IMG/VR virus record: IMGVR_UViG_3300045988_184127
Direction: 5' to 3' (one strand)
Source: a virus
Length of the DNA stretch: 64,000 nt
Below are positions 614-50,170 of this stretch, piece after piece. Positions within the stretch are counted from its first letter, which is position 1. Every line of letters begins with the position of its first letter. Both the position numbers and the translations under genes were made by a program. The notes under the pieces are model-generated. The model did no database searches. It was not told where the DNA came from and saw only the letters and a list, made by a program, of their open reading frames with translations.

Positions 614-844
614 CAGAAGGGTTGATGGAGCTACTTCAACCTCTCGTCTGGCAGGCTGGCAACACTTTGACCGCTAATCGTGAACTTTCATTTAACAAAC
701 CGGCTTCCAAATTGAGAAAAAGTGCAATTTATGGTATAATGCAGATATAGAAAAGAAAAATTGTACATACCTCTGACCACAAATCATTCAGATGCAATCT
801 AATCAAGGTTTGAGGTTATCTAAATCAAATCGGAAGCATGTCCT

Positions 845-1516: not shown

Positions 1517-1741
1517 ATGTCGAATATCACTGTTGGTCGAATCTTGCTTCTGGACCTTGTGTTCCTTGTTAATTCTGCTTTAACTCTTGTTGTTTTCAAG
1601 TTCGTTGGTCTTTTGGATGTTATGTCTACATCGGCCTTGTTCTTTCATTTTGTTGGTTCTTATATTATCCTGGCATATTTCATGTTTTGGATTTATCCGC
1701 AGATTCTGGAAGACCGGGAAAACAACGACGACGATAAATAA
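1517..1741 (+). CDS. small hydrophobic membrane protein
   Basis: 74 aa, two predicted TM stretches, starts 4 nt after upstream stop. Confidence 0.3.
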   Translation: MSNITVGRILLLDLVFLVNSALTLVVFKFVGLLDVMSTSALFFHFVGSYIILAYFMFWIYPQILEDRENNDDDK

Positions 1742-1985
1742 CCTGGTCGGAACCGTAGGCGCTTGAAACCGTAGGTACTTGCCTAAAGTTGAGCGAAATG
1801 TACTTGCGGGAAGCGTAGCCGCAATAGACTACTCCGAAAGTACCGTAGGCCCGCATACCGTAGGTCATACAATGAAGCGTAGCTGTTTGTAAAGAAATGA
1901 AAGACGGATGACGAAAGCGTAGCCGCTGCCCGGTAACAGGCTGCCGGTTGCGTAGCTGCCATTCGTCTTTTTGGGCTTAGAGGAG
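1741..1985. repeat. cluster of short direct motifs (A/G)CCGTAGG x4 and (A)AGCGTAGC x4, plus GTACTTGC x2
   Basis: Read directly: ggaaccgtagg, gaaaccgtagg, gtaccgtagg, cataccgtagg; gaagcgtagcc, gaagcgtagct, aaagcgtagcc, ttgcgtagct. The 13-mer ATGAAGCGTAGCT also occurs inside the upstream CDS (~962). Confidence 0.6.
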
Positions 1986-1993
1986 AGACGAGA

Positions 1994-2227
1994 ATGGTAT
2001 ATGAGGTAATCAGTCCACGCCCACATGGTTCAGAAATATTCGTGGGATTGCATACAGAATACCCGGAATGCATCGACCCGTTGAGTGTGCAGGAAGCAAT
2101 GCTCAGCGGCGGTAACAAAATCACATTCAAGGGCACTGAGAAAGAATATGAGGCGGTCAAGAAAAAGCTGGCAGCCAAAGTCAAGGTGACCATCATCAAA
2201 GAACAGAAAACGAAGAAAGAAAAATAA
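1994..2227 (+). CDS. hypothetical small lysine-rich protein
   Basis: 77 aa ORF with RBS-like GAGGAGAG upstream. Confidence 0.35.
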   Translation: MVYEVISPRPHGSEIFVGLHTEYPECIDPLSVQEAMLSGGNKITFKGTEKEYEAVKKKLAAKVKVTIIKEQKTKKEK

Positions 2228-7766: not shown

Positions 7767-9503
7767 TTAGAATCCAACGCTTGCAGGAAGATAGCTTTCA
7801 GCTTCCTGCAGGCGCTTTTTTGTATTTTCATGCATCTTCAAAAATGCAGGAAAAGCAGCTTTAAGAGCTTCGGTATCGTATTTTAGAGTTTCAGTATTTA
7901 TATGGGCGAGCAGAAAAGCGGAATACAGGTCACGCTGAACCACTTCTCCGCTGCTGAGATGTGCCATCCGTTCAGATAGTTTCTTCTTGGTATAGCTTTC
8001 ATCCGTATGGTCAAACTGAGAGGCTTTCGTCTCAAAAGTATCTACCTTGATAACATTGCCGCCGTTGTGGACAGCTTTGTTTGTAAGAATCGTGATAAAC
8101 TTCGCGGGAGCACAGCGACTTAAAGATTTACCGAAACGCTTTTTCGTATGTGCTCTACCGGTTTTTGGATTGACTTTCGTTTCCTTGCTGCGCTTCTGCA
8201 AGGCTTTGTAGTTCATATCTTCAGCCACGAACTCGTTGCCATGCTGCAGCAATTCGTTAGCAAGGATGTTGTGCTCCATCTTGCGGATATCCCCCAATCG
8301 GCGGTTTAAGTCACGCAGTTTTGCTTTCAAACGGAAATAGCGCTTGCTGCACTTCCAGTCGCGCTTTTGCTTTTGACCGTGCTTGCACTTCAATCGTTTT
8401 ATCGTGCCATCCGGATTATAATATTTCGGATTCGTGGCGCGACGGGAACGGTCCATTGCTCGCATGGTGCATGTAATTTCGTTCACAAGGCTTTTAGCTT
8501 GCGCTCTTGCCGATGGCGCGAGCACCCTCAAATCGCAGATATCATTGCTGCTGATGGCGAGCGTCTGTGTGCCAATATCAAGGCCCACACGGCCTTGATT
8601 GACGGGATACCTCATGACGCCGTTGCTATCGCATTTGACGGGAGGATACCCTTCCAAAACAAGTTGAGCATAATACTTCCACTTATTGCGAACCCATTTA
8701 CGGGTGATACGGCAATACTTTACGCCGCATTTGAGGGCTTCCTGCTGATATCTTCCCGTCTGAGTGTTAGGATTACGCACCACAACGGGAAATTCATGGT
8801 CGCCATACACTATGCGCAAAGAGCCTTCCCCAATAGACAGTTTGACTTTCGCAACGGCAGCGACGATATCGGCTTCCATTTGCGGTATTACAGCATCAGG
8901 AAGAATGACCTTTTTATCATCTTCAGGGTCAGGCTGTCCGTATGCTTTATAGTATCGCTGCTCAATAGCCTTTTGCTTTTTATTTTTTGCTGACCTTATA
9001 TTGCTCGTTGTGAGATTTGCCGGACGAAGCACAATGCCGGTGGCGTTATTCTTGCCAGAGATAGAAGTTACATCCTCAAGCTTTTTATAATGGACGGCCT
9101 TTCCTTTGCTGAAGAAAAAGCCTTCCCAAGCCGTCCAGACAGCAGATGCAACTTTCTGTGCTACATGAGAGTGGATAGCAAAGTGCTTTGCGTACGGCAC
9201 AACCAACTTATGAAAAGCATCTTCAGAAAAACGATATTCTTTAAGCATCTTTTCGCGCTGCTTAAAGAGTGTTTTTTGCTCATCGCTGTCGGGAGTTGCT
9301 TTTGCAATAGCTGCCATCAACTCACGATACTTGCGCGTCTTGCGCAATTGATGCCACATTTTTGTAGTCACACTCACAAGCTGATTGTAGATGACACCAC
9401 ACTTCTTGAACTCCTTATACAGATAGTCTTGCTCGTTGAGACTTATATCAAGAGGCAATGTCAATACAAATGATGGCGTGCTATTCTTGCTCCCGAAAGC
9501 CAT
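7767..9503 (-). CDS. tnpB: TnpB-like RNA-guided (OMEGA) RuvC nuclease, IS605 OrfB family
   Basis: RuvC-I VGLDIGTQTLAISS, RuvC-II FVAEDMNYKAL, RuvC-III-like RDLYSAFLLAHI; arginine/lysine-rich linker; unusually long (578 aa). Confidence 0.8.
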   Translation of the reverse strand: MAFGSKNSTPSFVLTLPLDISLNEQDYLYKEFKKCGVIYNQLVSVTTKMWHQLRKTRKYRELMAAIAKATPDSDEQKTLFKQREKMLKEYRFSEDAFHKLVVPYAKHFAIHSHVAQKVASAVWTAWEGFFFSKGKAVHYKKLEDVTSISGKNNATGIVLRPANLTTSNIRSAKNKKQKAIEQRYYKAYGQPDPEDDKKVILPDAVIPQMEADIVAAVAKVKLSIGEGSLRIVYGDHEFPVVVRNPNTQTGRYQQEALKCGVKYCRITRKWVRNKWKYYAQLVLEGYPPVKCDSNGVMRYPVNQGRVGLDIGTQTLAISSNDICDLRVLAPSARAQAKSLVNEITCTMRAMDRSRRATNPKYYNPDGTIKRLKCKHGQKQKRDWKCSKRYFRLKAKLRDLNRRLGDIRKMEHNILANELLQHGNEFVAEDMNYKALQKRSKETKVNPKTGRAHTKKRFGKSLSRCAPAKFITILTNKAVHNGGNVIKVDTFETKASQFDHTDESYTKKKLSERMAHLSSGEVVQRDLYSAFLLAHINTETLKYDTEALKAAFPAFLKMHENTKKRLQEAESYLPASVGF

Positions 9504-9507
9504 AAAG

Positions 9508-9909
9508 TTACCCTCCTCTCTTTTTTTGCTGTTCTACATAGTGTTGAATCGTAGCGGTAGACACATCTCCGGCAGTGCTTACAAAATAGCTGCGTGTCCA
9601 CATTTGCATAACCGTGTCAGGAAAAAGCTCTTGCTTGAGTATCTTGCCGGTGGTTCCTTTAATAATTTTCATGATTTCTGCAGCACTTAATGTAGGCGGA
9701 GCATTCACGAAAAGATGACAATGGTCTACATGACATTCCATTGCCAGTATCACAATGTCGTTTTGCTCACAAATTTGAGTTACAAGTTCCTTGAAACGAG
9801 CTTCAAACCCATCCACCAGAAATAATTTTCTTCGATAGCGTGGGCAAAACACAAAGTGATAATTTATCATAGAAACGGTTGCTTTTGTGCGCCTATAATC
9901 TTTTTTCAT
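9508..9909 (-). CDS. tnpA: IS200/IS605 family HUH (Y1) transposase TnpA
   Basis: HVDHCHLFV HuH motif and conserved catalytic Tyr region (MWTRSYFVST); 133 aa. Confidence 0.85.
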   Translation of the reverse strand: MKKDYRRTKATVSMINYHFVFCPRYRRKLFLVDGFEARFKELVTQICEQNDIVILAMECHVDHCHLFVNAPPTLSAAEIMKIIKGTTGKILKQELFPDTVMQMWTRSYFVSTAGDVSTATIQHYVEQQKKRGG

Positions 9910-10167: not shown

Positions 10168-10200
10168 CGGTTGTATTTGCTATACTAATAACAACCAATA
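10168..10200 (+). promoter_or_regulatory. sigma-70-like promoter for Y-family polymerase operon
   Basis: TTGCAA-17 nt-TATACT ~60 nt upstream of ATG 10261; followed by AACAACCA direct repeats and GAGGAGG RBS. Confidence 0.5.
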
Positions 10201-10260
10201 ACAACCAACAAGGCACAAATAACAACTAATAGGTGTTACCGCGAACCGAGGAGGCCAATC

Positions 10261-11529
10261 ATGGCAAGCGAAAGAACCATTCTTCATTGTGATATGAACT
10301 GCTTTTACGCCAGCTGCGAGATGGCCTACAATCCAAAGCTGCAGGGAAAACCAATTGCGGTATGTGGTGACCCGGAAAGGCGAAATGGCATCGTGTTGAC
10401 TGCCTCGTATCCGGCCAAATGGATGGGCGTGAAAACCGGAATGCCTCTATGGGAAGCACAGCAGCATTGCCGAGATATCATCTTTGTCCCGGCACACTAT
10501 GACCTTTATACCAGATACAGCGGCTATACCAGAGAAATCTTCCTGCGCTTCACGGACCAGGTTGAGCCGTTTGGCTTGGATGAGGCGTGGCTCGATTGTA
10601 CCGCAAGCCAGTCACTTTTTGGGACAGGGGAAAAGATAGCCAAGAAAATCTCTGATACCGTGAAGGATGAACTCGGCATTACCTGTTCTATCGGGGTGAG
10701 CTGGAACAAAATTTTTGCAAAGCTGGGGTCCGACTATAAGAAACCGAATGCCACCACCATCATATCAAGGTCAAACTGGAAAGATATCGTATTCCCGCTG
10801 CCTGCCACGGACCTTTTGTATGTTGGGTCCAGAACGGGAAAAAAGCTGTCAAACTATTGCATTCATACAATCGGGGATTTGGCAACCTCCAATCCGAATT
10901 TTCTGAAAGAAAAACTCGGAAAAATCGGTCCCATGCTATGGGGATTCGCAAATGGCCTTGATACAGGAGCAGTAGCAAAATACGATGGCAGGGAAGCTCA
11001 AGCACCTATCAAAAGCGTTGGGAACAGTTGGACCACGCCAAGAGACCTCCTAACTGATGGGGACGTCTGGATAGTGCTTTATCTTCTTTCGGAGAGTGTT
11101 GCGGCCCGCCTCCGGGAAAATCATTTCCAATGTCGGGGAGTAGAAGTGAGTCTCCGAGATTCCAGCCTTTTCAGCTTTGAGCGACAAGTCAAGCTGCCTC
11201 AGCCAACGATGCAGGAAAAGGATATTGCGGAGGCAGCTTACCAGCTGTACAAGAAGAACTACCGATGGAGTGAGCATCTTCGCTCAGTTGGCGTGCGTGC
11301 CATTGACCTGCGGTCGGATACCGAGCCGAATCAGATATCTTTTGAGTATAGTGCCGAAAAGCAAGAGGAGACTGAACGACTCGAATCCGCAATCGACGGG
11401 ATACGAAATCGGTTCGGATACTACTCCGTGCAGCGAGCCGTCATGTACAAAGACCGGTTTCTCTCGCATTGCGATGCAAAGGGAGACCACACCATACATC
11501 CACACGGATATTTGCAGGGGAGTATCTAA
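10261..11529 (+). CDS. Y-family translesion DNA polymerase (DinB/UmuC-like)
   Basis: N-terminal ILHCDMNCFYASCE and FGLDEAWLD motifs of UmuC/DinB palm domain; 422 aa. Confidence 0.85.
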   Translation: MASERTILHCDMNCFYASCEMAYNPKLQGKPIAVCGDPERRNGIVLTASYPAKWMGVKTGMPLWEAQQHCRDIIFVPAHYDLYTRYSGYTREIFLRFTDQVEPFGLDEAWLDCTASQSLFGTGEKIAKKISDTVKDELGITCSIGVSWNKIFAKLGSDYKKPNATTIISRSNWKDIVFPLPATDLLYVGSRTGKKLSNYCIHTIGDLATSNPNFLKEKLGKIGPMLWGFANGLDTGAVAKYDGREAQAPIKSVGNSWTTPRDLLTDGDVWIVLYLLSESVAARLRENHFQCRGVEVSLRDSSLFSFERQVKLPQPTMQEKDIAEAAYQLYKKNYRWSEHLRSVGVRAIDLRSDTEPNQISFEYSAEKQEETERLESAIDGIRNRFGYYSVQRAVMYKDRFLSHCDAKGDHTIHPHGYLQGSI

Positions 11530-12384: not shown

Positions 12385-12418
12385 CTTTGCTGCACAAAAA
12401 CAAGCCTCCGCTCTTTGG
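12385..12418 (+). terminator. rho-independent terminator
   Basis: gcctccgctctttggcgggggc hairpin then tcttcttgtattct. Confidence 0.5.
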
Positions 12419-12860
12419 CGGGGGCTCTTCTTGTATTCTCAAAAACGTTGAATTCAATTTCACTGAATTCCGATTCAGCATTATTTGGCGTGGCTCAGCT
12501 CGATAACTTTATCGACCCTTCTCAGAAGTACCCTGTTATCGCTGTTACAAGCCGTCTGATGAGCACAGGCGTTGATGCCGAGACTTGTGAAATTGTCGTT
12601 CTGGACCTCTGGCCCCGTCCGAAATTATCTATCGCATTGCAGCCAACTATATTCTGGGTTTCTCTGAGGAGCATAACGGAAAGCAGTATAACTTCCGTAT
12701 CTGTAATGCGCTACCCTATGCAAGGGATGGGACGCTGAGCGAGAAGTTGGATGAGTTGTTTTGATAAAACAGTATAGGAATATAGCTAAGCCGCCAAGCG
12801 AGTGAAATCGTTTGGTGGCTTTTCTTTTTGCTATGGAAAAGTAGACATTGTACTTGTCAT

Positions 12861-12921
12861 GAGCTTGTTGCATACTTGCTACGAACTTGCTAAAAACTTG
12901 CTGAGCACTTGCTACGCTTCA
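12861..12921. repeat. four direct copies of ACTTGCT(A/G) including ACTTGCTACG x2 (reverse complement CGTAGCAAGT)
   Basis: catACTTGCTACGaACTTGCTaaaaACTTGCTgagcACTTGCTACGc; shares the CGTAGC core with repeat clusters at 1741 and 39600. Confidence 0.55.
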
Positions 12922-13434
12922 CCTCGAAGCAAGTTCAGTTTTTTGCGCGAAAGAATATCGGATAAGTGACGCTTCCTACTCGTATGACCGAGAGAAAACA
13001 TGCAAAGACTCTACCATTCTGGTAGGGCTTTTTTGCTGCCCAAAAAGTTGGAAAAATGTCGCAAGCGAGCCGCTGAAACCTCAGAATTTTGTCGCAGCCC
13101 TTCCGAATATGAGATGTATCTCACAAAAGCGAAATGCGCTGCTTCGTATCTGTGGTGAGACAATCGGAACAGGCGAATAGCAAAATCTCAGCTGCCGCAA
13201 ATGCTGTCAAGTTCAAATCACAACTCCCAAAAGTTTCGTTTGGGAAAGCCTGCATTAAAAGTTTCGTTTTGGAAAATGCAGAGGGGAAAGGAAAATGTCG
13301 AAGCATATATGCACTGATTTTCTTCTTGCTATTTGTGCAATCCGCTCAAATTGGCGATAAATATTCCCAAAATAAATAAGTCAAAGTGCTTTTGGTGTAT
13401 AATGGCTCTGACAAACAGAAAAAAGGAGAACACT

Positions 13435-14681: not shown

Positions 14682-15704
14682 ATGAAAAAGGTTGTATCAT
14701 TAGCACTTTCGGCTTTGCTTGCCCTTTCCCTGGCCGCCTGTAGCAGCTCTAACACTACCAGTACTACTGCCAGCAGTGCAGCTACATCTGATGCTGCATC
14801 CTCCGAGGAAAGCACCAGCGACTCTTCAACGAGTACTGCAAGTAGTGCTGCCGATAATGCAACGGCTGAACCCGACATCCAGTTCGATGAGAGTTTCCAG
14901 CCACAGACGATTGCCGACAACGATACCTGTACCATCATCTTGCAGAACGTGGGTTATGATGACAGCTATGGCTACTACTGGACCGTTGATTTCCAAAATA
15001 AAACGGATGACAAAACTCTTTGCGCTATCACAAGCAGCTCGTCCTTGAATGGAATCCCGGCAGATACCAGTTGGTTCCCGGAAATTGGGCCAGGAGTGAA
15101 AACCACCGAGGTCGTTTCGTGGGATAAAGCAGGACTGGAAATCTATGGAGTGAAACCGCAAGACATCGATACCGTCAAACTTCACATCGATGTCTATGAT
15201 GAAGCAGAATGGGATGTGTCGAATCGTGATGACCCTGTCGATGATGACTTTGTGATTTATCCGAAAGGTGAAGAGAACGCGACAGAACCAAAACACGAGA
15301 TTCAGCCCACGGATATTGTGCTGTTCGACAATGATGCCTGCAGCATGGTCGTTTGCGGATTTTATTCTGATAGTTTCATGGGCTATACGGCGAAAGCCTA
15401 CTGTCAGAACAAGACAGATGACCGTATCGATGTCATTCTGGACAAAGGCTCTATCAACGGCTTTGAATGTACCCCGGAAGGAGCGGCACTACTGGAACCA
15501 CATTCCAACGCCTATGTTGACATTCGTTGGCAAGAATATGCTGAAACTTATGCAGAGAATGGCAACGACCCAACATCCATCACAGAAATTGTAATGCCAG
15601 TTTTTGTGAGAAAAGACACAGGGAACAATACGGTATACATTGATGCCACTTATTCTATTGACCCGCAGGCAAGAACTGCAACGCCGATAGTGAACCCCCA
15701 ATGA
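14682..15704 (+). CDS. lipoprotein with internally duplicated domain (paralog 2)
   Basis: MKKVVSLALSALLALSLAAC lipobox; long blocks near-identical to paralog 1 (DDDFVIYPKGEENATEPKHEIQPTD); extended -10 tGaTGTATAAT upstream. Confidence 0.7.
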   Translation: MKKVVSLALSALLALSLAACSSSNTTSTTASSAATSDAASSEESTSDSSTSTASSAADNATAEPDIQFDESFQPQTIADNDTCTIILQNVGYDDSYGYYWTVDFQNKTDDKTLCAITSSSSLNGIPADTSWFPEIGPGVKTTEVVSWDKAGLEIYGVKPQDIDTVKLHIDVYDEAEWDVSNRDDPVDDDFVIYPKGEENATEPKHEIQPTDIVLFDNDACSMVVCGFYSDSFMGYTAKAYCQNKTDDRIDVILDKGSINGFECTPEGAALLEPHSNAYVDIRWQEYAETYAENGNDPTSITEIVMPVFVRKDTGNNTVYIDATYSIDPQARTATPIVNPQ

Positions 15705-22087: not shown

Positions 22088-23782
22088 GTGACAAAAAAGA
22101 ACATTTTCCCTGTGGTTGCAACCATTGCTGTGGTAGGCGTTGTTCTCGGCGTGTTTTCGACGACTGTGCTGCGCGACTCGAATGTCAGCATCAGCACGAT
22201 GACTTCCGAGCAGGCATATGCCAACTTGAGCAGCAAGATGAAGCGCATCGGCGTGCAGGAGGTCAAGGTCAATCCTCAGCAGCTGGATGTCTCTGAATTC
22301 CTTGATGCAAAGGATGAACTGCCCGACATTGAATCCTCCTACCCATTCGTGGTCGTAGGAAACGGAGATGTGAACATCGAAATCTTTTCCTCTGGCGAGA
22401 AAGCAGCAGAGTCCGGCTCAGATTCTTTCCTGACCGAAATGGCAAAGAAGTTCAACGCCCAGCACAACAAGACTTCCGGAGACAAGACTATGAGTGTCTC
22501 CCTGCGCTCCATTCCGTCCGGTACGGCGGCTGAGTACATCTCGACGGGAAAGTATCAGCCCGAGTGCTATACCCCCTCAAATACGCTCTTTGGCGAGCTG
22601 GTGAAGAACGAGGGCGTAGAATTGACCGTTGAGGCTGACCGTCTGGTCGGCAATGTGGCGGGTATTCTCGTATCAAAGAAGACAGGGGATATGCTTCGCT
22701 CTGAATACGGTGAAGCTTCTGTTTCTTCCGTTCTGAACGCAACCATCGATGGCAAACTCATGATGGGATACTCGAACCCCTACACAAGTGCTACGGGTCT
22801 TAATTTTCTGCTTGAGGCTCTTGCGAGCAGCGGCAGCGATACGATTGTCGATACGGCTGCTGTTGAGAATTTCCAGAAATTTCAAGCGAACGTCCCTCTC
22901 GTATCCTTCACGACCCAGCAGATGGTCCAGTCGGCAGACAAGGGCATCGTGGACGGCGTTGTCATGGAGTATCAGTCTTATCAGAATGACCCGACCTTAC
23001 AGCGCAACTACGAGTTCATCCCGTTCGGTGTACGGCACGATAATCCTCTGTATTCCATCGGGAATGTCTCTGCGGAGAAGAAGGAAGTTATTGCTGCCTT
23101 CGTTTCCTTCTGCGCTCAGAACCAGGCAGAGGCGACCAAGGACGGATTCAATGGTCTTGACGACTATGCTTATACAGGCAAGGCATACGACGGCAACACC
23201 ATCGCACAGGCTCAGAGTGTCTGGAAAGAAGAGAAGGATTCCGGTATTCCTATTGTGGCAGAGTTCGTTGTCGATACTTCCGGCTCAATGCGCGGCGAAC
23301 CCCTGAATGCCCTGAAAACCGCGATGATAAACACCATCCAGTATATCAATGACGACAACTATATCGGCATCATTGGCTTTGATTCAGATGTCAGGGAATA
23401 CCTGCCCATTGACCAGTTCTCTCTGACCCAGAAAACTCTGTATAAGGGTGCCGTGAACTCCCTCGATGCGAACGGCAGCACCGCAATGTACAACGGTCTT
23501 TGCGTTGCTATGGACCGCATCTACCAGAAATCTCAGGAACTGGGTGGGAATTGCACGCCCATCATCTTTGTGCTCACGGACGGTGACAACAATACCGGAT
23601 ATGGATTCTCCGATACGAAGAACATCATTGCCGGTATGGATATCCCCATTTACACCATCAGCTACAACTACGCAGCGGATAGTCTTTCGGAGCTCGCTTC
23701 CATCAACGAAGCGGCAGCTATCGTCGGCAACAGCGAGGATATCACCTACAAGCTCCGCAACCTGTTTAACGCAGAGATGTAA
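22088..23782 (+). CDS. membrane-anchored von Willebrand factor type A (vWA) domain protein
   Basis: GTG start after AAGGAG RBS; N-terminal TM; C-terminal MIDAS motif VVDTSGSMRGEP...NGSTAMYNGL...TDGDNN. Confidence 0.7.
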   Translation: MTKKNIFPVVATIAVVGVVLGVFSTTVLRDSNVSISTMTSEQAYANLSSKMKRIGVQEVKVNPQQLDVSEFLDAKDELPDIESSYPFVVVGNGDVNIEIFSSGEKAAESGSDSFLTEMAKKFNAQHNKTSGDKTMSVSLRSIPSGTAAEYISTGKYQPECYTPSNTLFGELVKNEGVELTVEADRLVGNVAGILVSKKTGDMLRSEYGEASVSSVLNATIDGKLMMGYSNPYTSATGLNFLLEALASSGSDTIVDTAAVENFQKFQANVPLVSFTTQQMVQSADKGIVDGVVMEYQSYQNDPTLQRNYEFIPFGVRHDNPLYSIGNVSAEKKEVIAAFVSFCAQNQAEATKDGFNGLDDYAYTGKAYDGNTIAQAQSVWKEEKDSGIPIVAEFVVDTSGSMRGEPLNALKTAMINTIQYINDDNYIGIIGFDSDVREYLPIDQFSLTQKTLYKGAVNSLDANGSTAMYNGLCVAMDRIYQKSQELGGNCTPIIFVLTDGDNNTGYGFSDTKNIIAGMDIPIYTISYNYAADSLSELASINEAAAIVGNSEDITYKLRNLFNAEM

Positions 23783-23901
23783 CTCAAAAGCGCGGTTTTG
23801 TCCGCGCAGCTGCTCCAAAAGACAGCCTCCACGCGGCGAGCAGCGGGCAACGGGAGACAGTTCCGGCAAATTGTCTTTGAGACGGAAGGAGGAAGTGCCC
23901 T

Positions 23902-27379: not shown

Positions 27380-27571
27380 TCGTTCTATATAAACCGTCTG
27401 GCGGTATCTAACTGATTAACACTAAAAACAAAGAGCCGTGGTTGGAGCCTTTCCGAAACCGTCTTGCGGTAGGAGGTTTAAACCAATCCACAGCACCTTG
27501 TCTATTGTAGCATTTTGTCCTTGGAGAGGGACTTTAATAACTACTACTTTATAATACGAGGAGTATCTTGC
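27380..27571 (+). ncRNA. candidate omega-RNA region for IscB
   Basis: ~190-nt non-coding stretch immediately upstream of iscB containing imperfect repeats accgtctggcggta / accgtcttgcggta; omega-RNAs are known to lie 5-prime of iscB. Confidence 0.3.
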
Positions 27572-28924
27572 ATGAGCACTTGCGTTTGTGTTCTCAGCAA
27601 CAGTGGTGAACGCTTAATGCCTACCATCCGTCTTGGCAAGGTACGCCGACTCTTGAAAGACGGAAAAGCAAAAATCGTTAAGCATCATCCTTTTACTATT
27701 CAACTGCTGTATGACAGCAAAACGAACACACAACCCATCGAAATCTGCGAAGACGTGGGCTACAACTACATCGGCATCAGCGTAAAAAGCGAATCCCACG
27801 AATATGTGTCTGCCCAGTATGATACATTACAGGATGAGAAAGCCTGCCACGACAGTTGTCGTAAGTTGCGCCGAACCCGCAGAAATAGACTGCGCTACCG
27901 TAAACCGCGCTTCGATAACCGCAAGCGCGGCGAAGGTTGGCTTGCTCCTTCTTTGAGGCATAAGAAAGAACTCAATGTCAACGTTGTCAAGATGTATTGT
28001 GCAGTAATGCCCATTACTCATGCAACGGTTGAGGTTGGTTCTTTTGATACGATGCTTGTAAAAGCAATTCAGGAGGGAAAAGCCATTCCTGAGGGAGCAG
28101 ACTACCAGAAAGGTCCCCGCTACAACTTGGCAACTTCGCGTGAGGCAGTGTTCTACCGTGATAATTACACCTGCCAAGTTTGTGGACGCAAAGTTGCGGA
28201 TGGTGCCATTTTACATATGCACCACATGTTCTACTGGAAAGGAAGACACGGCGACAGCCTGAACGAACTTCTAACGGTATGCGAAAAGTGCCATACACCT
28301 GCCAATCACCAAAAAAGCGGTAAGCTTTATGGCTTCGGAGAAAATGTAAAGTTTGCCGACCTTTCCGGTGCGGCTTTTATGAACACCGTTAGGTGGCAAA
28401 TTGTCAATGAACTCTACGCTGCTTTTGGAAAAGATTTTGTCACCATCACTTATGGCGCAATGACAAAAGAAAAGCGCATTGCGCTTCAACTTGAGAAAAC
28501 CCACAGCAATGATGCGTATGCAATGGGCGAGTTTCATCCAAACTGCCGCTGTACGTTTGAACATTATGAAAAGGTAAGGCGTAATAATCGCATCCTTGAA
28601 AAGTTTTATGATTCTCGCTACATTGACATTCGTACAGGAGAAATAGCTACTGGAAAAGAACTCTTCAACGGTAGAATTAACCGTAACCACAAAAAGGATT
28701 CGGAAAATTTGCACAGATACCGTGGCAAGAGGACATACGCAGGGCATCGCGCTCTATTACGCAAAAAGGTAAACCTTAATCCGGGTGATTTAGTCTCTCT
28801 CAACGGAGAAGTTCTCGTTGTGCATAGCACTCATACCAATAAAAAGGGTGCTGTAAATGTAGAATTCAAAACACCCGGAAAAGCGGTCAAAAATCTGCAA
28901 GCCTTAAAAAACTTAAAATTGTAA
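27572..28924 (+). CDS. iscB: IscB OMEGA RNA-guided nuclease (PLMP-RuvC-bridge helix-HNH-RuvC-TID)
   Basis: N-terminal SGERLMPTIRLGKVRRLLKDGKAKIVKHHPFTIQL (PLMP domain), ICEDVGYNYIGISV (RuvC-I), RKLRRTRRNRLRYRKPRFDNRKRGEGWLAPS (Arg-rich bridge helix), CQVCG...LHMHHM...CEKCH (HNH), HSNDAYAMG (RuvC-III). Confidence 0.8.
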   Translation: MSTCVCVLSNSGERLMPTIRLGKVRRLLKDGKAKIVKHHPFTIQLLYDSKTNTQPIEICEDVGYNYIGISVKSESHEYVSAQYDTLQDEKACHDSCRKLRRTRRNRLRYRKPRFDNRKRGEGWLAPSLRHKKELNVNVVKMYCAVMPITHATVEVGSFDTMLVKAIQEGKAIPEGADYQKGPRYNLATSREAVFYRDNYTCQVCGRKVADGAILHMHHMFYWKGRHGDSLNELLTVCEKCHTPANHQKSGKLYGFGENVKFADLSGAAFMNTVRWQIVNELYAAFGKDFVTITYGAMTKEKRIALQLEKTHSNDAYAMGEFHPNCRCTFEHYEKVRRNNRILEKFYDSRYIDIRTGEIATGKELFNGRINRNHKKDSENLHRYRGKRTYAGHRALLRKKVNLNPGDLVSLNGEVLVVHSTHTNKKGAVNVEFKTPGKAVKNLQALKNLKL

Positions 28925-29837: not shown

Positions 29838-30434
29838 ATGAGCTATGAACCCATTATCACACCGGGCAGGAATTTCTTTCTTGTCTCGACGGAGTACAAA
29901 GAGAGCTGCTCTGCCTGGTGCCGCAAGCAAATTAGAGCGACACTGAGGACCTGTCAGGGACGAGTCATCATCATTGATGCAACGGGCGAGTACGCGGACT
30001 TGGCGCTTGAACATGACAGATTGATTCGAGAGAAAATCCCGTCCATCATTTATCGGTATAAGCTGGTGGACGGGAAACCGTATATTGCTCATGTCATTGA
30101 AGTTGATACGGAAGCAAATGAAGCACCGCACCTGATTGTATACGATATCAGCCGGACCATAATCACCAGCTGGAAGGTCGGCGTAGAGGCAATTGATAAA
30201 ATCCTGCAATCCTATGCCGTGATGCGGGACAGTGAAATCGCGTGGTTGTATGTTCCGCTGGACTTATATACCAATGTCAAGCCTGAAACCGAATCCTGGA
30301 ACATTCTGGAACGAACTATCAAGGGTAATGAAGGCAAGCTCATGACAGTACTGACGACTCGCAAATTCACCATTGGGATGGTCCAGCGCTGTTTGCATAT
30401 GACAAAAAATAAACTTTTGGAGGATAGCAAATGA
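29838..30434 (+). CDS. hypothetical protein
   Basis: 198 aa ORF 40 nt downstream of P4. Confidence 0.4.
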   Translation: MSYEPIITPGRNFFLVSTEYKESCSAWCRKQIRATLRTCQGRVIIIDATGEYADLALEHDRLIREKIPSIIYRYKLVDGKPYIAHVIEVDTEANEAPHLIVYDISRTIITSWKVGVEAIDKILQSYAVMRDSEIAWLYVPLDLYTNVKPETESWNILERTIKGNEGKLMTVLTTRKFTIGMVQRCLHMTKNKLLEDSK

Positions 30435-31318
30435 CCAATGAACAGCTGAGAATCGCATTGACGGCGAATGCCGTTACCAAACAAACCCGAAACCATTTTG
30501 GATTCAGTGACCCGTGTGGAAAAACGCTAGAAGAATACAACAAGTCCGCGATGCTGTGCTGCATGACAGCGGCGCAGAGAATGAACACGCCGGGTTTTGA
30601 GCGTGTTTTGGCTGCGCAGATTTTTCCCTGCTTTACCATTGGCTGCTGGAATCAGACGAAGACGGTCTATGATTTTGACTACGAGTTTCAGAAAATGCTG
30701 ATGGATACGGATGACGTGGCAATTCATCAGGATATCCTGCAGCGACTCCCGGTTCGTGATTTCTTTATCCCGGTGTATGACAGCTACGACTACAACGGTA
30801 TGTTCGTGCATGTGGAATTCGACGAAAAAGAGAAAACCACAGCTTTCGGTATCGTTCTTGTCGGCCCCACTAAGGGCAGCCACGATGATTTCACGTTCCT
30901 GACTCTGCCTGCCTGGGCCAAAGAAAACCAGAGTTTGACGGAAGCAACCCGGAGTACGAAAGAATACCTGGAAAAGGCAGCAGGGCAGCGGCAAGTAAAT
31001 GGTATCAGCGTACCGGCTGTGATGGAAGCAGTTCCTTCGGTCTTTGACGGCGGCACACCTTATGTCCGGCTGGCAATCCTGTGCGCCAACTATCTTGCCA
31101 GCAAGAACCCAGATGTCCGCCTTGAAACTTCCAAAAAGCGTGACCGCCCGGTATTCGTGTTTCAGGGAAAGGCACAGCGAATCAACGTCAAGACATATAC
31201 CGTTGGTGAGAATGCGGCCAAAGAATACAAAAAGAATGGGGAAGGCAAAACCCCCCGCTGGCGGCATTACTGGTGCGGCAATGGCCGGGAACGCCGGGAA
31301 TGCAAGTTTATTTACTGA
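30431..31318 (+). CDS. hypothetical protein
   Basis: 295 aa ORF, 4-nt overlap with upstream gene. Confidence 0.4.
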   Translation: MTNEQLRIALTANAVTKQTRNHFGFSDPCGKTLEEYNKSAMLCCMTAAQRMNTPGFERVLAAQIFPCFTIGCWNQTKTVYDFDYEFQKMLMDTDDVAIHQDILQRLPVRDFFIPVYDSYDYNGMFVHVEFDEKEKTTAFGIVLVGPTKGSHDDFTFLTLPAWAKENQSLTEATRSTKEYLEKAAGQRQVNGISVPAVMEAVPSVFDGGTPYVRLAILCANYLASKNPDVRLETSKKRDRPVFVFQGKAQRINVKTYTVGENAAKEYKKNGEGKTPRWRHYWCGNGRERRECKFIY

Positions 31319-36051: not shown

Positions 36052-36504
36052 ATGATTCGATTCAGAAAAGATACCCCTCGCTACTGGTTTATGAGTAACT
36101 ATTATTCTTGCGAATTTGTGATGAATGGGATTCGTTACAAGAATGCCGAAGCAGCGTTTCAGAGCCACAAGGTTCCGCTGGAAGAGCGCAAACAATTTTC
36201 AGACATGCCTCCGGCAACGGCTAAGCATTTTGGCCGTCATGTGGCTTTCCCTGCCAACTGGGACGAAACCCGGGACGATGTAATGCGCCGCGTGGTGATG
36301 GCTAAATTCGAACAGAATAAAGACCTCAAGCAGCGTCTCCTCGAAACGGGAACGCAGCCAATCGAGGAAGATACCACCAGTTGGCACGATAACTACTGGG
36401 GAAACTGCCATTGCCCGAAATGCCGGAACATCCCGGGTCAGAACCGGCTTGGGATTATTCTGATGGAAACGAGGGACAAGCTAAAAAAACAAACGAGTAA
36501 ATAA
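36052..36504 (+). CDS. NADAR-domain protein (YbiA-like, DUF1768; ADP-ribose/NAD-processing hydrolase family)
   Basis: FSNYY..C.F..NG..Y...E..FQ..K......RK.F.......AK..GR......W.......M...V.AKF.QN..L...LL.TG...IEE....D.YWG pattern of NADAR domain. Confidence 0.7.
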   Translation: MIRFRKDTPRYWFMSNYYSCEFVMNGIRYKNAEAAFQSHKVPLEERKQFSDMPPATAKHFGRHVAFPANWDETRDDVMRRVVMAKFEQNKDLKQRLLETGTQPIEEDTTSWHDNYWGNCHCPKCRNIPGQNRLGIILMETRDKLKKQTSK

Positions 36505-37065: not shown

Positions 37066-38952
37066 TCACTGAACAACTTCGCCAAGGTCATTTGCGTATT
37101 TCGGGTCACACATCATGAAATAGTTGACGGGGCCGTACTCCAGACCGAGCTCCTGCGCGTATGCCTTGATAGCTTCCAGAACGTCCTCTCTCTTGAGGCC
37201 AAACTTGGAATGCAGACGGGCAAACTCTTTGTCAGAGACAGAAACGCAAGAGCAATTTTCTGCATCGGTTTCTTTGCTGCCCAGCATCCCGTCAAAGATG
37301 TCCTGCCCTGCACAGAGAATCGTCTCATTGTTCATCGCATAGGCGATAACGGAAGCCTTACAGTCAAAGTCGCTGTTTTCCACAAGGAAATCCTCAGGGC
37401 GGCCGTGACGTTCAACAACGTTTTCATAGATGTCCCGGAGTTCGATAGGAGCAGAAGGAGCGGTCAGAGCTGCTTTATGAAGGCGCATGAATTCCACAAA
37501 CTTTTCATTCGAGAGGGTATCGGTATAAAAGCCGATGCCGGAAACGCGAACCTTCACTTCGCTGGCAAAGTAATCGTCAATTTTGGAAACGATTTTCTGC
37601 TGGACCCGCTTGTATGCTTCCTGAACATTGGAAGCCGTGTAAAATACCGGGAACTTCATGATGTCGATTCCCTCCGGCAGACTCGCGTCATAGGCCGCAT
37701 CAATGCCGCCCCGCAGCGCCGGAACTGCGTCATGCAGCTCTTTCACAGAAGAAATGTATCCGGTAATGTACAGCTCATCGTTTTTGCTGTAATGCCCGAT
37801 AAGTCCCACATAGAGGGTCTGCATCAGCATCCGCTTGAAGCTGAACCAACAAAGACGAATAGGTAGAATGACATTAGCAGCCGTACCTTCCGCACGATAG
37901 GTGCCGGGGGCAGAGACCTTTTCCAGCAGAATCTGGTCATTCTTGTCGCCGTATTTTTCCTTGAAAAGAGCTTGAAGAATTTCAGTGGACGAAAGAGGAG
38001 TGGACATTGGAATCGTTTCATTCAGAAAAGAGAGGAATGCATCCACATTGTCTTTCTGCCATGCGTCATCAGACATGCTTGCACGCTGCATAGAGAGCTT
38101 GTCTTTCCCGTCGTCAGGCAAGGGCTCATACCCGCAGGCGATACGAAGCTCGTTCTCCGTGACAGCATCCGTTGCGCTTGCAATTTTCTTGATGGTATTT
38201 TCGGTCGGCTGAGCTTTTGCGTTGCCATTCACGAGGCTGCTGATATACCCACGAGTCAGTCCTGCCTGAAACGCAAACTTACCCTGTGTTCGGGTTCCGA
38301 TGGCTTTTTTGACCAGCGATGCCAGCCTTTGAAAGTCGGGCTCTTTGGGAAAGGTGGCCTCCGTATCCTTATTGCTGTTCTTTTCAAGTACCGACTTGTC
38401 CCAACCGGTGACAAGAGAATACCCAATATCCTTCAAGGATTGATAGGCAACCCCGTTCTGGTCAAGAGCCGGGGAGTATGTACCGCTGTTATCTTCCAGC
38501 TGCTCTACTGCGTCACGCACCATCCTTGCTTCGTTCATCAGGATGACGTCCGGGGCTTCAAGCCGGGCAAGACTCTTGTACCGATTATTGAGGCGCTCGA
38601 CTCGTGCGGCCAATGCAGTGATGTTGGCAACTTGGTCTTCCGTTGCATGGGCAGAGATATCTGCACCAAGTTCAAAATGGTTCAGTGCAGGAATATCCAC
38701 GCCTTTGCTCTTGGCGAATTCCACAATGGCTTCCGCGCCATAGAAACGCTTCTCATGGGCTGCGACAACTTTCGTTATCGTGTCGGCCGAGTTGTCCAGC
38801 TCAAGCACTTCACCTTTTCCGGCACCCTCGACATAACACCTGGCGTTGGTGAGAAAGCCTTTCAAAAAATCAGCATCCACATCCAGCTTCTTAGCGATGC
38901 CGGGCAGCTGCTTATAGAAAATCACGGGCGTGGCGAGGTTAACAGAAATCAT
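37066..38952 (-). CDS. large hypothetical protein with central XRE-like helix-turn-helix
   Basis: 628 aa; segment QRLASLVKKAIGTRTQGKFAFQAGLTRGYISSLVNG resembles HTH_XRE DNA-binding motif. Confidence 0.45.
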   Translation of the reverse strand: MISVNLATPVIFYKQLPGIAKKLDVDADFLKGFLTNARCYVEGAGKGEVLELDNSADTITKVVAAHEKRFYGAEAIVEFAKSKGVDIPALNHFELGADISAHATEDQVANITALAARVERLNNRYKSLARLEAPDVILMNEARMVRDAVEQLEDNSGTYSPALDQNGVAYQSLKDIGYSLVTGWDKSVLEKNSNKDTEATFPKEPDFQRLASLVKKAIGTRTQGKFAFQAGLTRGYISSLVNGNAKAQPTENTIKKIASATDAVTENELRIACGYEPLPDDGKDKLSMQRASMSDDAWQKDNVDAFLSFLNETIPMSTPLSSTEILQALFKEKYGDKNDQILLEKVSAPGTYRAEGTAANVILPIRLCWFSFKRMLMQTLYVGLIGHYSKNDELYITGYISSVKELHDAVPALRGGIDAAYDASLPEGIDIMKFPVFYTASNVQEAYKRVQQKIVSKIDDYFASEVKVRVSGIGFYTDTLSNEKFVEFMRLHKAALTAPSAPIELRDIYENVVERHGRPEDFLVENSDFDCKASVIAYAMNNETILCAGQDIFDGMLGSKETDAENCSCVSVSDKEFARLHSKFGLKREDVLEAIKAYAQELGLEYGPVNYFMMCDPKYANDLGEVVQ

Positions 38953-39564: not shown

Positions 39565-39599
39565 ACACCACAGAGCAAAAAGCAAACCAAGCCTGCAGT

Positions 39600-39685
39600 A
39601 AAATGCGGGTAGGACTTTTTTGTTTGCGTAGCTGCATCCTTTTGTCCGCAGAAACCGTAGGTGCCAGGATGCGTAGCTGCCGATG
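39600..39685. repeat. second cluster of GCGTAGCTGC x2 / ACCGTAGG motifs
   Basis: gtttGCGTAGCTGCatcc...gaaACCGTAGGtgccaggatGCGTAGCTGCcg; same cores as 1741-1985 cluster. Confidence 0.55.
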
Positions 39686-39689
39686 TGTC

Positions 39690-39717
39690 TTGACCCGGCG
39701 TGCGAATCTCATACAAT
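39690..39717 (+). promoter_or_regulatory. conserved-module promoter P7
   Basis: TTGACC-16 nt (cggcGTGCGAATCTca)-TACAAT. Confidence 0.55.
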
Positions 39718-39723
39718 CAAATC

Positions 39724-39800
39724 TGTACGAAAGATACTATGCACACAATAGAATTCACACTAAGCTGCTCAGTGGCCTTATGGCTATTGGGTAGCTTTTT
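39724..39800 (+). ncRNA. candidate short transcript/leader from P7 ending in weak terminator
   Basis: ~80 nt containing AGATACTA and GAATTCACA motifs shared with P12/P13 leaders; ends gggtagctttttctttt just before P8. Confidence 0.3.
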
Positions 39801-39846: not shown

Positions 39847-40254
39847 ATGAAAAAATTTATTGGGACTGCTCTGGTGCTGTGCTGCCTGGCTCTACCTTTG
39901 GCTGGCTGTGAGGACGCAATCAGCACTGTGACAAGTACCACAATGTCTGAACTCGAAGATATCCCGAACCAGATATTGGCCACACCGGAAAGTGCTGAAA
40001 CGGAACCGGAATACAATTACATTCATTTTCGTTACGACAACATCTGGACTGTATCTGCCCTCGTGAACTACGAAATCGTAGACAACGGCCAAAACATAAA
40101 ATTTGAAATCAACGATAGTCGTTATCGAGACAAGGTTTTTTATACCAGCATGTCGAATGTAGAGCTCGTATACCGAGACGATAGCGTTGATTATCGCACG
40201 GGCTATGCGGTTTATCCGGGGGATGCCTCGAAGCTTGGAAAAGGTGGTAAGTGA
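39847..40254 (+). CDS. lipoprotein
   Basis: MKKFIGTALVLCCLALPLAGCED lipobox; 135 aa. Confidence 0.55.
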   Translation: MKKFIGTALVLCCLALPLAGCEDAISTVTSTTMSELEDIPNQILATPESAETEPEYNYIHFRYDNIWTVSALVNYEIVDNGQNIKFEINDSRYRDKVFYTSMSNVELVYRDDSVDYRTGYAVYPGDASKLGKGGK

Positions 40255-42434: not shown

Positions 42435-43121
42435 ATGATTGAGCAGAAAGACAGTGAAATTTTGGAGCTCGCGGGGTTTGCAGACCGGAACAGAAAGGCC
42501 AGGGAGGTTCATTCAGAGCCTATTTTCGTACAGGTGAACAGCAAGCTGGCAGCCTACACGATACCAGGAATGCGTTCGGAAGGAACGACCTATGATGTTC
42601 CGACTTACTCGGCACTGAAAGGTGCAATGGATTCCATCTACAAACATGTCGGTATGGAAGCGATTCCGACGGCGGTGTACATTCACTCTCCTATAAAAAA
42701 GACACGTATCCTGCTGCGAAATATTGAGAACATCGAAGGAATGCGCTCCCGCGAATGCTTAACGGATGTTTGCTACACGGTCGTTGTACGAATCGTAAGA
42801 ATGGATAACATGGCTTTAGAAAGCGACCTCACAGTGCAGTACAGGAATTTCTTAGAGTATGCTTCCGACAGCTGTGGGATGGGATATCCGTATCTTGGCG
42901 TGATGGAAACACCCATGTATTTCCATCCTGTAACGGAAGCTGAAATCCTTCCGACGCTGCCCATCACATCTGATTTGTGCAACATGCCTCTGACGCCGGA
43001 TTATACGAACAAATTTGAACCGGATTTGGTTTGCAGGCATCTTCGCATCGAGAATGGTGTCATCGATTTTACGAAGGGGGAGTATTTTCGCTGCTATGGA
43101 TATTCTGAATGCGCTGGTTAA
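42435..43121 (+). CDS. cas5c: Cas5c (Cas5d) type I-C Cascade subunit / pre-crRNA endoribonuclease
   Basis: FVQVNSKLAAYTIPGMRSEGTTYDVPTYSALKGAMDSIY matches Cas5d N-terminal signature (..yAlF..P......Y.vPTysALKG..esIY); 228 aa; overlaps cas8c start. Confidence 0.8.
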   Translation: MIEQKDSEILELAGFADRNRKAREVHSEPIFVQVNSKLAAYTIPGMRSEGTTYDVPTYSALKGAMDSIYKHVGMEAIPTAVYIHSPIKKTRILLRNIENIEGMRSRECLTDVCYTVVVRIVRMDNMALESDLTVQYRNFLEYASDSCGMGYPYLGVMETPMYFHPVTEAEILPTLPITSDLCNMPLTPDYTNKFEPDLVCRHLRIENGVIDFTKGEYFRCYGYSECAG

Positions 43122-45042: not shown

Positions 45043-45044
45043 CA

Positions 45045-46332: not shown

Positions 46333-46415
46333 AACCCTAATAAGATAAGAATTATGCCCTGACGGCATCTGAATTGGATGCTGCCGGGGCATTTTTGTTG
46401 TTAGGAGATATAGCT

Positions 46416-49975: not shown

Positions 49976-50114
49976 GTCGATACTTCCGGCTCGATGCGCG
50001 GAGAACCTATCAATGCACTGAAAACGGCCATGATTAACACCATCCAGTATATCAATGACGACAACTATATCGGCATCCTCGATGAGTTGCTGGATATTCT
50101 TAACGATAAATAAT
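49976..50114 (+). pseudogene. duplicated internal fragment of vWA gene (MIDAS region) - gene remnant
   Basis: ~113 nt ~88% identical to 23270-23385; in-frame translation FVVDTSGSMRGEPINALKTAMINTIQYINDDNYIGI then novel tail and stop; no start codon or RBS. Confidence 0.55.
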
Positions 50115-50117
50115 TGA

Positions 50118-50160
50118 TTTTTACACCTCCGATGTTACGGCATCGGAGGTTTTGTTTTTT
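50118..50160 (+). terminator. rho-independent terminator
   Basis: cctccgatgttacggcatcggagg + ttttgtttttt. Confidence 0.65.
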
Positions 50161-50170
50161 GGAGGATACT

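Follow-up and report, generated by a model that had tools for sequence, protein, structure and literature searches.

Arrays of CGTAG units as putative cis-regulatory hairpin signals linked to termination control in conjugative plasmids of gut Oscillospiraceae

What reads the short repeats that are scattered through the non-coding DNA of a large plasmid from gut bacteria, and in which form of nucleic acid are they read? The question is raised by a 64,000-nucleotide stretch of DNA (IMG/VR record IMGVR_UViG_3300045988_184127; hereafter the window), part of a conjugative plasmid of gut Oscillospiraceae that encodes a type IV secretion system (T4SS) and measures 200-390 kb. An initial annotation had singled out three intergenic clusters of short motifs in the window and proposed that one DNA-binding protein, for instance a Rep, a ParB or a transcription factor, recognizes them all. 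Here we describe the first and third clusters as arrays of one conserved unit with a CGTAG core, whose copies lie on the sense strand, are bordered by complementary bases and are followed by intrinsic terminators. We tentatively propose that these arrays are co-transcriptional recognition sites that control termination and that would be read in single-stranded form by a putative factor.

The three clusters are present where the initial annotation had placed them, and their words stand out without preselection. When all 6-, 7- and 8-mers were scanned for clustering, the top words of the window were ACCGTAGG (4/5 copies within 106 bp), ACTTGCT (4/7) and GCGTAGC (4/8). Exact word counts over the 64 kb place ACCGTAGG at 1752, 1768, 1842, 1857 and 39654 on the + strand and GCGTAGC at 967, 1056, 1813, 1877, 1917, 1950, 39626 and 39671, with two further occurrences on the minus strand (12911 and 58877). 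There are 26 CGTAG pentamers on the + strand of the window, eight of which fall within 1754-1955 and three within 39627-39676. The former belong to array B (1751..1959, + strand; cluster 1), which comprises eight copies between a 74-aa membrane open reading frame (ORF; 1517-1741) and a 77-aa ORF; its cores start at 1754, 1770, 1814, 1844, 1859, 1878, 1918 and 1951, with flank classes C,C,G,C,C,G,G,G. Array C (39626..39680, + strand; cluster 3) consists of GCGTAGCTGC at 39626, ACCGTAGG at 39654 and a second GCGTAGCTGC at 39671. A remnant of a further array, A, is found as two AAGCGTAGC copies (965-973 and 1054-1062, + strand) in the 5' part of a thioredoxin-like coding sequence (CDS; 845-1513), and the 13-mer ATGAAGCGTAGCT that had been reported from both this CDS and the first cluster is indeed located at 962 and 1872. 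The estimate of four to eight copies per cluster applies to cluster 1 and not to cluster 3, and neighboring copies in cluster 1 are 15-44 bp apart rather than 10-30 bp. The degenerate word AASCGTAGS occurs nine times in the window against 1.2 +/- 1.2 times in shuffled sequence, and none of 100 shuffles reaches nine. These statistics, together with the conservation of the motif, exclude a chance origin of the arrays.

How widely is the unit conserved? Homologues of the window's DUF6557 protein, encoded next to the arrays (65%, 56% and 53% identity), led to loci with the same gene order on contigs L012, L011/L190 and L027, and a fifth lineage, L194 (a 389-kb contig), was found through a VirB4 that is 86% identical. 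The motif is retained in relatives: in L011, L012, L027 and L194 it occupies the same two places, arrays A and B, while spacers, copy number and positions vary, and in ten close relatives array B is near-identical. Array A has 4-10 copies in the relatives and extends over the leader and the 5' CDS, with three or four copies in the 5' leader and further ones within the first ~270 nt of the thioredoxin-like CDS; in L027 and L012 copies also lie upstream of the promoter. The CDS copies are translated as S-V-A (AGC GTA GCT) in L011, L012 and L194. In the window a CDS copy is read as K-R-S-S (AAG CGT AGC TCG), and the window's own S-V-A is encoded by TCC GTT GCT, without the motif. Because the reading frame of the CDS copies thus differs between lineages, selection acts on the nucleic acid and not on the protein.

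Copies are also conserved away from these two places. A single one overlaps the TAG stop codon of a 257-aa gene in the T4SS cluster. The 67 nt from the terminator T-run through array C are 100% identical in the rearranged relative L025, where the flanks differ; the alignment of the region as a whole is ~95% identical, and its terminator stems carry compensatory changes. The block from a 106-aa gene to RlaP that contains array C is found elsewhere in L025, an example of the reshuffling of cargo modules among close relatives. A fourth array, D, lies in a cargo module of L027, and array E (L194, 20594-20715) is a decayed, partial paralogue of the array B terminator without basal stem and T-run, which demonstrates local duplication as a way in which arrays spread. 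DUF6557 homologues of lower identity (44% and 47%; L026 and L189) belong to different elements in which the arrays are absent. Scans of IMG/VR with a triple-motif pattern returned mostly coding tandem repeats and GC-rich noise and recovered one contig of the family. Taken together, arrays B and C and the two CDS copies share one conserved motif, which is very likely read by one factor or mechanism; to this extent the idea of a common reader stands, and it is cluster 2, a different repeat, that falls outside it.

The anatomy of the unit bears on how it might be read. A position matrix built from 57 curated copies reads G-A-A-S-C-G-T-A-G-S'-Y-G/A-C with an invariant CGTAG, which corresponds to a conserved length of 9-13 nt and the consensus GAA-S-CGTAG-S'-YGC. 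The bases that flank CGTAG are complementary in all 57 copies (G..C in 42, C..G in 14 and A..T in one), and the combinations G..G and C..C are absent where ~21 would be expected from independent column frequencies, in a curated set that omits three in-array copies whose flanks are non-complementary. Among CGTAG pentamers outside arrays the proportion with complementary flanks is 20%. At the stop codon of the 257-aa gene both sides have changed together, from GCGTAGC in three lineages to ACGTAGT in the lineage of the window. Every one of the 57 copies is on the sense strand. Neighboring copies are separated by 5-136 bp across arrays, mostly by 13-45 nt, with minima of 5 and 8 nt in L027, and their spacing shows no helical phasing at 10-10.5 bp (R = 0.05-0.10; Rayleigh p 0.67-0.91).

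All 57 copies fit the pattern of GNA mini-hairpins, S-C-G-N-A-G-S', in which a C:G pair closes the loop and an outer pair is complementary. The unit could fold such that the S:S' and C:G pairs enclose a loop of G, T and A, in which G and A would form a sheared pair and the T would be exposed, a type of structure that is not part of the nearest-neighbor folding model. The G-T-A center is non-palindromic and never inverted; this is compatible with a sheared G.A pair but not with a duplex site that is symmetric. In the same way, the restriction to one strand combined with complementary flanks around a G..A core points to a hairpin in a single strand, either RNA or non-template DNA, rather than to a site in duplex DNA. 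Within the population, array B displays variants of the loop T, CCGTAGG being replaced by CCGAAGG or CCGCAGG (L006 about 5763 and L002 about 5868), and one flank variant, ACCGTAGG to ATCGTAGG, that gives a T..G pair (L016 about 705); these variants are too few for a test of constraint.

What lies around the arrays? The 3' part of array B is a long, imperfect terminator hairpin (1899..1972, + strand), whose basal stem pairs GACGGATG (1903-1910) with CATTCGTC (1960-1967) and is followed by a T-run (1968-1972), just upstream of the ribosome-binding site GAGGAGAG of the 77-aa gene. Its RNA fold has a free energy of -35.2 kcal/mol (z = -3.16), the z scores in four lineages are -3.2, -2.5, -5.4 and -4.5, and seven of the 20 pairs in the five-lineage consensus structure have changed on both sides. 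The 3' part of array B thus has the GC-rich hairpin, the U-run and the compensatory changes of a rho-independent terminator. Motif copies 7 and 8, the last two, are enclosed in it: each arm holds one of them, and in all lineages the 3' one directly adjoins the basal stem and the T-run. At its other end, array B starts 2-11 nt past the upstream stop codon or overlaps it. Array C is preceded by a terminator (39591-39610) with its T-run and followed by a promoter (TTGACC-16-TACAAT, 39690-39717) and a leader terminator with a 16-bp stem and a T-run (39762-39797), ahead of a lipoprotein ORF at 39847; the whole context spans 39591..39797 on the + strand. Downstream of array D, at a distance of ~70 nt, there is a 15-bp terminator and, beyond it, a TTGACG-16-TACAAT promoter. 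Within the T4SS cluster, the single copy is positioned 3-15 nt before a terminator with a very long stem (z = -3.0 to -3.3 in three lineages), and in array A of L012 two copies occupy the loop of a hairpin whose 3' arm carries the ribosome-binding site and is followed by a T-run. An intrinsic terminator is found within ~100 nt downstream of every array and single copy.

Upstream, a strong sigma-A-type promoter serves the thioredoxin-like gene (TTGAGA-17-TATAAT with extended TG, TGgTATAAT; 712..740, + strand). It is also present in L011, L012, L027 and L194, and in the relatives array A lies around it. Arrays A and B are downstream of a strong promoter. Folds of whole arrays are not significantly stable (z = -1.6 for B, -1.1 for C and 0.0 for D), nor is the single-stranded DNA (ssDNA) fold of 1742-1993 (z = -1.67 for the + strand and -0.97 for the - strand). 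Rfam 15 gave no match in 600-2100 at E <= 5. Across the whole window, the only Rfam hit to reach its gathering threshold is an HDV-like ribozyme that is unrelated to the arrays (RF02682, HDV-F-prausnitzii; 23809-23878, + strand; 58 bits against a gathering score of 44) and that adjoins the 3' side of a VWA-domain gene (22088-23782).

How might such arrays act? Restriction to the sense strand, selection independent of reading frame, complementary flanks, lack of phasing, copies in terminator arms and a terminator after each array jointly lead us to a co-transcriptional mechanism as the tentative explanation. Transcription of the sense strand would expose the units in single-stranded form, either as mini-hairpins in the non-template DNA of the transcription bubble or as hairpins in the nascent RNA. 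A putative sequence-specific factor would recognize the units and alter the behavior of RNA polymerase at the intrinsic terminator downstream, where read-through (antitermination) would be the most likely effect. With multiple copies, loading of the factor would become more likely. Occupancy of the last two copies of array B, which are located in the terminator stem, would in addition block the hairpin directly.

Several observations weigh against this mechanism. Arrays C and D lie upstream of the nearest recognizable promoter, so they would be transcribed only by read-through or from an unseen promoter. No gene for the factor was found: Pfam tables and scans of most of the ~115 kb of the window lineage (the window and ~30 kb upstream, except for the stretch at about 45-50 kb and a few upstream ORFs) contain no member of the NusG/KOW family; the DNA covered is about half of the plasmid. 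Since all genes next to arrays are on the + strand, 'one strand of the replicon' would describe the observed restriction as well as 'sense strand' does. Two founder units, spread by local duplication, could have given rise to the two flank classes; C-class copies are often adjacent pairs, and Tandem Repeats Finder reports a 16-bp duplication. In the consensus fold the two copies in the terminator pair with each other in a shifted register and with G.U pairs, and some copies may be structural parts of an RNA hairpin rather than protein sites. Terminators are common in these intergenic regions and many in the window have no motif upstream, which makes the association of motif and terminator suggestive only. 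Array A no longer has its leader copies in the window lineage, and in one variant array B tolerates an IscB-type insertion element (L016, about 750-2350), inserted right after ...ACCGTAGGtcataca.

Could the units instead be ordinary operators? Arrays of boxes on double-stranded DNA, bound by a plasmid-encoded global transcription factor that contacts a 9-13-bp box as a monomer or asymmetric binder, are possible though somewhat unlikely. The arrays would be comparable to those of Spo0A 0A-boxes or RcopLS20 operators, and the promoters next to arrays A, C and D would be the ones that the factor represses or activates. The geometry is suitable: arrays C and D are 10-120 bp upstream of TTGAC(C/G)-16-TACAAT promoters, and array A brackets its strong TTGAGA-17-TATAAT promoter, copies being located between ~+8 and +30 and, in the case of L027, on the upstream side too. 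Candidate regulators exist in the form of an HTH_3 protein in the window (37066-38952) and Penicillinase_R, HTH_31 and Mor proteins in relatives, other short repeated operators occur in the same non-coding regions, and array C is conserved perfectly including its spacers. A duplex reader should however tolerate mixed flanks, which none of the curated copies has, and would not explain why the G-T-A center is never inverted. Nor would it account for copies without helical phasing, as near to each other as 5 or 8 bp and reaching ~270 bp into a CDS, or for array B, which has no conserved promoter and places copies inside terminator arms. An RNA attenuator that requires no factor is a quite unlikely scheme, in which quasi-self-complementary units (AGC-GUA-GCU; GCGU:GCGU) would pair in alternative registers, as segments do in the trp leader and in the 'zipper' attenuator. 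The first copy of array B would be covered when a ribosome terminates at the upstream stop codon, and this would determine whether the terminator forms from the last two copies. The five-lineage consensus pairs the 5'-arm copy with GGUU plus the first four bases of the 3'-arm copy and includes G.U wobbles, which are specific to RNA, and the position of array B at the upstream stop codon, the single T4SS-cluster copy that contains its gene's own TAG stop and a precedent in pLS20 (PMC13401043) agree with such a device. Pairing alone, on the other hand, leaves the strict loop T and the GAA and YGC flanks unexplained; the number of copies (4-8) and its parity vary between lineages, whole arrays do not fold significantly, and arrays C and D have no terminator made of motif copies.

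If the single strand that is read were plasmid DNA during conjugative transfer or lagging-strand synthesis, the units might serve as primase/ssi sites or as nuclease-resistant or SSB-free landmarks. This reading is even less probable than the attenuator, although it has the best chemical precedent: the unit is an exact mini-hairpin DNA sequence, as known from RSF1010 ssiA and the phage G4 origin (PMC13037366). The element is conjugative, with a T4SS coupling protein (T4CP), VirB4 and M23 hydrolase, the motif is restricted to one strand of the replicon, and G..T flanks are absent from the 57 curated copies, with the one T..G population variant in L016. An ssi or sso would comprise 100-300 nt of strongly folded ssDNA, and the array region has no significant DNA fold; RSB and CS-6 elements were checked by eye. 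Neither a primase nor a relaxase was seen in the DNA covered, two or three arrays in >100 kb are too few to prime a 220-kb strand, and the association with terminators and the placement at promoters and leaders would remain unexplained. Replication-origin iterons or centromere repeats for a Rep, ParB, ParR or omega-type protein, as the initial annotation had envisaged, are very improbable. They would suit direct repeats in the non-coding DNA of a large, low-copy plasmid, and the 11-bp phasing of cluster 2 is typical of ParR- or omega-type centromeres. But CGTAG units are short, at 9-13 nt, and unphased with irregular spacing, their arrays are non-contiguous and have a non-palindromic center, and they are dispersed in movable cargo modules, with copies also within a CDS and within the arms of terminators; rep and par genes are absent from the gene tables and Pfam scans of the DNA defined above. 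Four other candidates were rejected. An ECF-sigma promoter (GAAC-N16-CGTA) has a spacing that suits one pair of copies in the window and is not conserved, a sigma-A promoter within array B (TAGGCC-16-TACAAT) is absent from other lineages, Chi-like sites, suggested by the likeness of GAAGCG to Staphylococcus/Bacillus Chi, do not fit dense arrays that adjoin terminators, and REP/RAYT-type elements (GTAG plus palindrome) fail since most copies have no palindrome.

Does co-transcriptional reading of the arrays have a parallel among described systems? One of the closest is the ops element of RfaH, which contains GCGGTAGC and forms a hairpin in the non-template strand, where C3 pairs with G8 and T6 flips out into the protein (PMC5995543). 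The core of ops (GGCGGTAGnnTG), GCG(G)TAGC, is one loop base apart from the GCGTAGC described here, and the hairpin proposed for the latter would have in common with ops a C:G closing pair, a G and an A in the loop and an exposed T, which in ops is read by protein (PMC5995543). RfaH activates the F conjugation operon, and ops acts on the sense strand only, in leaders of long, horizontally acquired operons that include this one (PMC7819879), and upstream of termination signals. The differences are equally clear. Ops is a single 12-nt copy in Proteobacteria, whereas here 3-10 copies occur in a plasmid of Firmicutes; the loop is one nucleotide shorter, the outer pair may be G:C or C:G and the consensus GGCGGTAGnnTG is not matched. 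RfaH is weak on intrinsic terminators, whereas it is intrinsic terminators that follow CGTAG arrays, and a NusG-family paralogue (NGN + KOW) is missing from the DNA scanned. A more far-reaching version of our proposal, which we regard as unlikely, is that the arrays represent, in Firmicutes, a hitherto undescribed type of signal at which an elongation or antitermination factor is loaded, ops-like in an arrayed format, and that they gate transcription from the T4SS operon into the anti-defense and cargo genes of a megaplasmid that ranks among the most prevalent in the human gut.

Further likenesses come from DNA and RNA signals of several kinds. The heptamers GCGNAGC and CCGNAGG are 'extraordinarily stable' DNA mini-hairpins known from the G4 origin, from N4 promoters and from RSF1010 ssiA, where CCGAAGG is read by the primase RepB' (PMC13037366). 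The GC..GC and the CC..GG version of our unit both belong to the identical heptamer class, d(GCGNAGC)/d(CCGNAGG), whose known uses are strand-specific signals (PMC13037366); the known mini-hairpins are however single, located at the tips of larger ssDNA origin structures and read by primase, whereas CGTAG units come in arrays linked to terminators, and in them the GAA and YGC flanks are conserved and the T is invariant. Gram-positive conjugative elements have terminator-rich operons under cis-acting antitermination or attenuation, and their very long-stem terminators are shared with the CGTAG loci (PMC8191782, PMC11658703, PMC13401043, PMC10325885). The conAn element of pLS20, canT of Tn916 and the zipper attenuator are, like CGTAG arrays, cis-acting, orientation-specific, non-coding and placed in long operons with intrinsic terminators, but each is a single structured RNA of 100-450 nt at the start of an operon without reported short repeats. 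The distal end of the T4SS cluster is where the CGTAG arrays start, and more of them follow in the cargo; no ConAn1-like gene was identified. TRAP (11 (G/U)AG triplets) and HutP (UAG triplets) also bind repeated UAG-containing words in leaders that overlap a terminator, yet their sites are unstructured and separated by regular spacers of 2-4 nt, where we observe spacers of 5-45 nt or more, a unit of 9-13 nt and paired flanks. Omega heptads of pSM19035, ParR-parC, the Rco operators of pLS20 and Spo0A boxes resemble the arrays as groups of boxes of at least 7 nt near plasmid promoters, possibly for one protein; their repeats are contiguous, phased or in both orientations, and have no need for complementary flanks around a G..A core. 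Plasmid iterons, finally, are direct repeats of ~17-22 bp spaced by about two helical turns, and centromeres next to parA or parM consist either of parS, a 16-bp palindrome, or of short repeats that are contiguous or phased. None of the described families we found appears to include the CGTAG arrays, each of the closest kinds departing from them in at least one defining feature.

Where does this leave cluster 2? Here the repeat is ACTTGCT, present at 12874, 12885, 12896 and 12907 with degenerate units at 12852 and 12863 (12852..12913, + strand), and instead of the irregular spacing that had been described, Tandem Repeats Finder reports an exact 11-bp period with a unit of the type ACTTGCTA. 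CGTAG occurs in reverse complement in only two units (GCTACG), which are off consensus at +6 to +8, and the total of ACTTGCT in the window is at the level of chance (11 against 9.7). Given this regularity, the two CGTAG units and the chance-level frequency, the link of cluster 2 to the others through a common core is weak, and the core is shared by clusters 1 and 3 alone. Cluster 2 is a separate element outside the CGTAG system and the only one of the three that resembles the short-repeat class of omega and ParR. The 11-bp phase suggests binding on one face of the duplex. The last ACTTGCT unit forms the 5' arm of a terminator-like hairpin (12900..12945, + strand) with AGCAAGT (12928) as the 3' arm, followed by T6; its fold (-14.3 kcal/mol, z = -1.2) is not significant. 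A small RNA antisense to GAAGCGTAGC was considered and rejected, since no promoter is visible and the copy departs from the consensus at positions +6 to +8. In L012 a related array of ACTTGCT (15149-15208) has other genes around it.

Cluster 2 is situated between a YpsA-like gene and a lipoprotein gene, in 1.1 kb of non-coding DNA that also contains a helicase gene remnant, two other terminators and another repeated operator-like word. There is no par gene beside the cluster, and no gene was called next to it. By eye, the translation of the non-coding remnant at 12415-12790 resembles the C-terminal end of an SF2 helicase/HsdR; a strong terminator (12788-12821) follows it. The operator-like word, AAAGTTTCGTTTTGGAAAA, occurs twice (13225-13275) upstream of an extended -10 promoter, with the lipoprotein gene at 13435, and three times in L026, an otherwise different element (about 1440-1520). 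Its presence in both suggests a second regulator common to several elements.

What kind of element carries the arrays? Conjugation is indicated by the T4CP, the M23 hydrolase and the VirB4-like ATPase encoded upstream of the window. Searches at near-identity and protein level gave no near match to the window among reference phages and plasmids (INPHARED and PLSDB), and we found no paper that describes the element. Exact-protein look-ups place window proteins on human-gut metagenome contigs of 60-290 kb, and the index of the collection lists the 77-aa ORF that follows cluster 1 in 1025 blocks. Among species-representative genomes there is one relative, a Clostridiales metagenome-assembled genome with a 224-kb contig, and one protein of an identical cluster is named from Oscillospiraceae bacterium SCCA1. 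IMG/VR files contigs of the family (84-389 kb) as viral despite their full conjugation apparatus. Complete contigs of the family include IMGVR_UViG_3300045988_182459 (222 kb) and DYBQ01000001.1 (224 kb). The 77-aa ORF (1994..2227, + strand) comes directly after array B in every lineage and is conserved, with a basic tail; it has no Pfam hit and belongs to no known family, its AlphaFold2 model is unreliable (pLDDT 62.6), and it is only a candidate partner of the arrays. The 30 kb upstream of array A contain T4SS genes, a RecD2-like helicase and a 2095-aa ORF without Pfam hit (L201, 4598-10885), the latter two upstream of the T4SS genes; in these 30 kb both strands are free of arrays, and neither a regulator nor a NusG-like gene was found.

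As to its gene content, the window is a mosaic cargo region with almost all genes in the same direction, and the arrays are located at the junction of the T4SS gene cluster with this mosaic of defense and anti-defense cargo. It encodes a UmuC-like polymerase, NYN, NADAR, AcrVA2-like and Apyc1-like genes, an orphan methyltransferase, a type I-C Cascade, and IS200/IS605 and IscB-type elements. A 100-aa ORF with a zinc ribbon lies at 311-613. A 10-bp tandem repeat, AATAACAACC x4.4, at 10187-10231 is probably an operator; it is directly upstream of the UmuC/IMS-like polymerase gene (10261-11529). Cas5d, Csd1 and Cas7 of the Cascade are encoded at 42435-46007, next to a UvrD-like helicase (46374-49136), and there is no Cas3, Cas1 or Cas2 in the gene tables and no CRISPR array detected at 41.9-55.2 kb. 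The IS200/IS605 pair (7767-9909, - strand) combines a Y1 transposase with a TnpB-like ORF of 578 aa, and an IscB-like RRXRR+HNH ORF lies at 27515-28924 (+ strand). Anti-defense-like cargo is found at 30431-31318, 36052-36504, 50114-53045 and 58832-59992 and includes an AcrVA2-like protein, NADAR, an N6 methyltransferase with a specificity subunit and a Lactamase_B/Apyc1-like protein.

What would termination control by these arrays mean for the plasmid family? The host element is a very prevalent, uncultured megaplasmid, and public gut assemblies contain its contigs, 200-390 kb long, in more than 1000 sample blocks. Given that the arrays are situated at the junction of T4SS and cargo, whatever reads them probably decides when the cargo is expressed. 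Should the mini-hairpin reading be true, it would extend the principle of ops and RfaH, in which a flipped-out base of a tiny hairpin is recognized in a single strand, to an arrayed format and to Gram-positive conjugative elements and would give the 'extraordinarily stable mini-hairpin' a new natural role. Should the units be ordinary operators, the arrays would still define the regulon of a global regulator of this plasmid family. We tentatively take the CGTAG arrays to be short cis-regulatory hairpin signals tied to the control of termination in conjugative elements.

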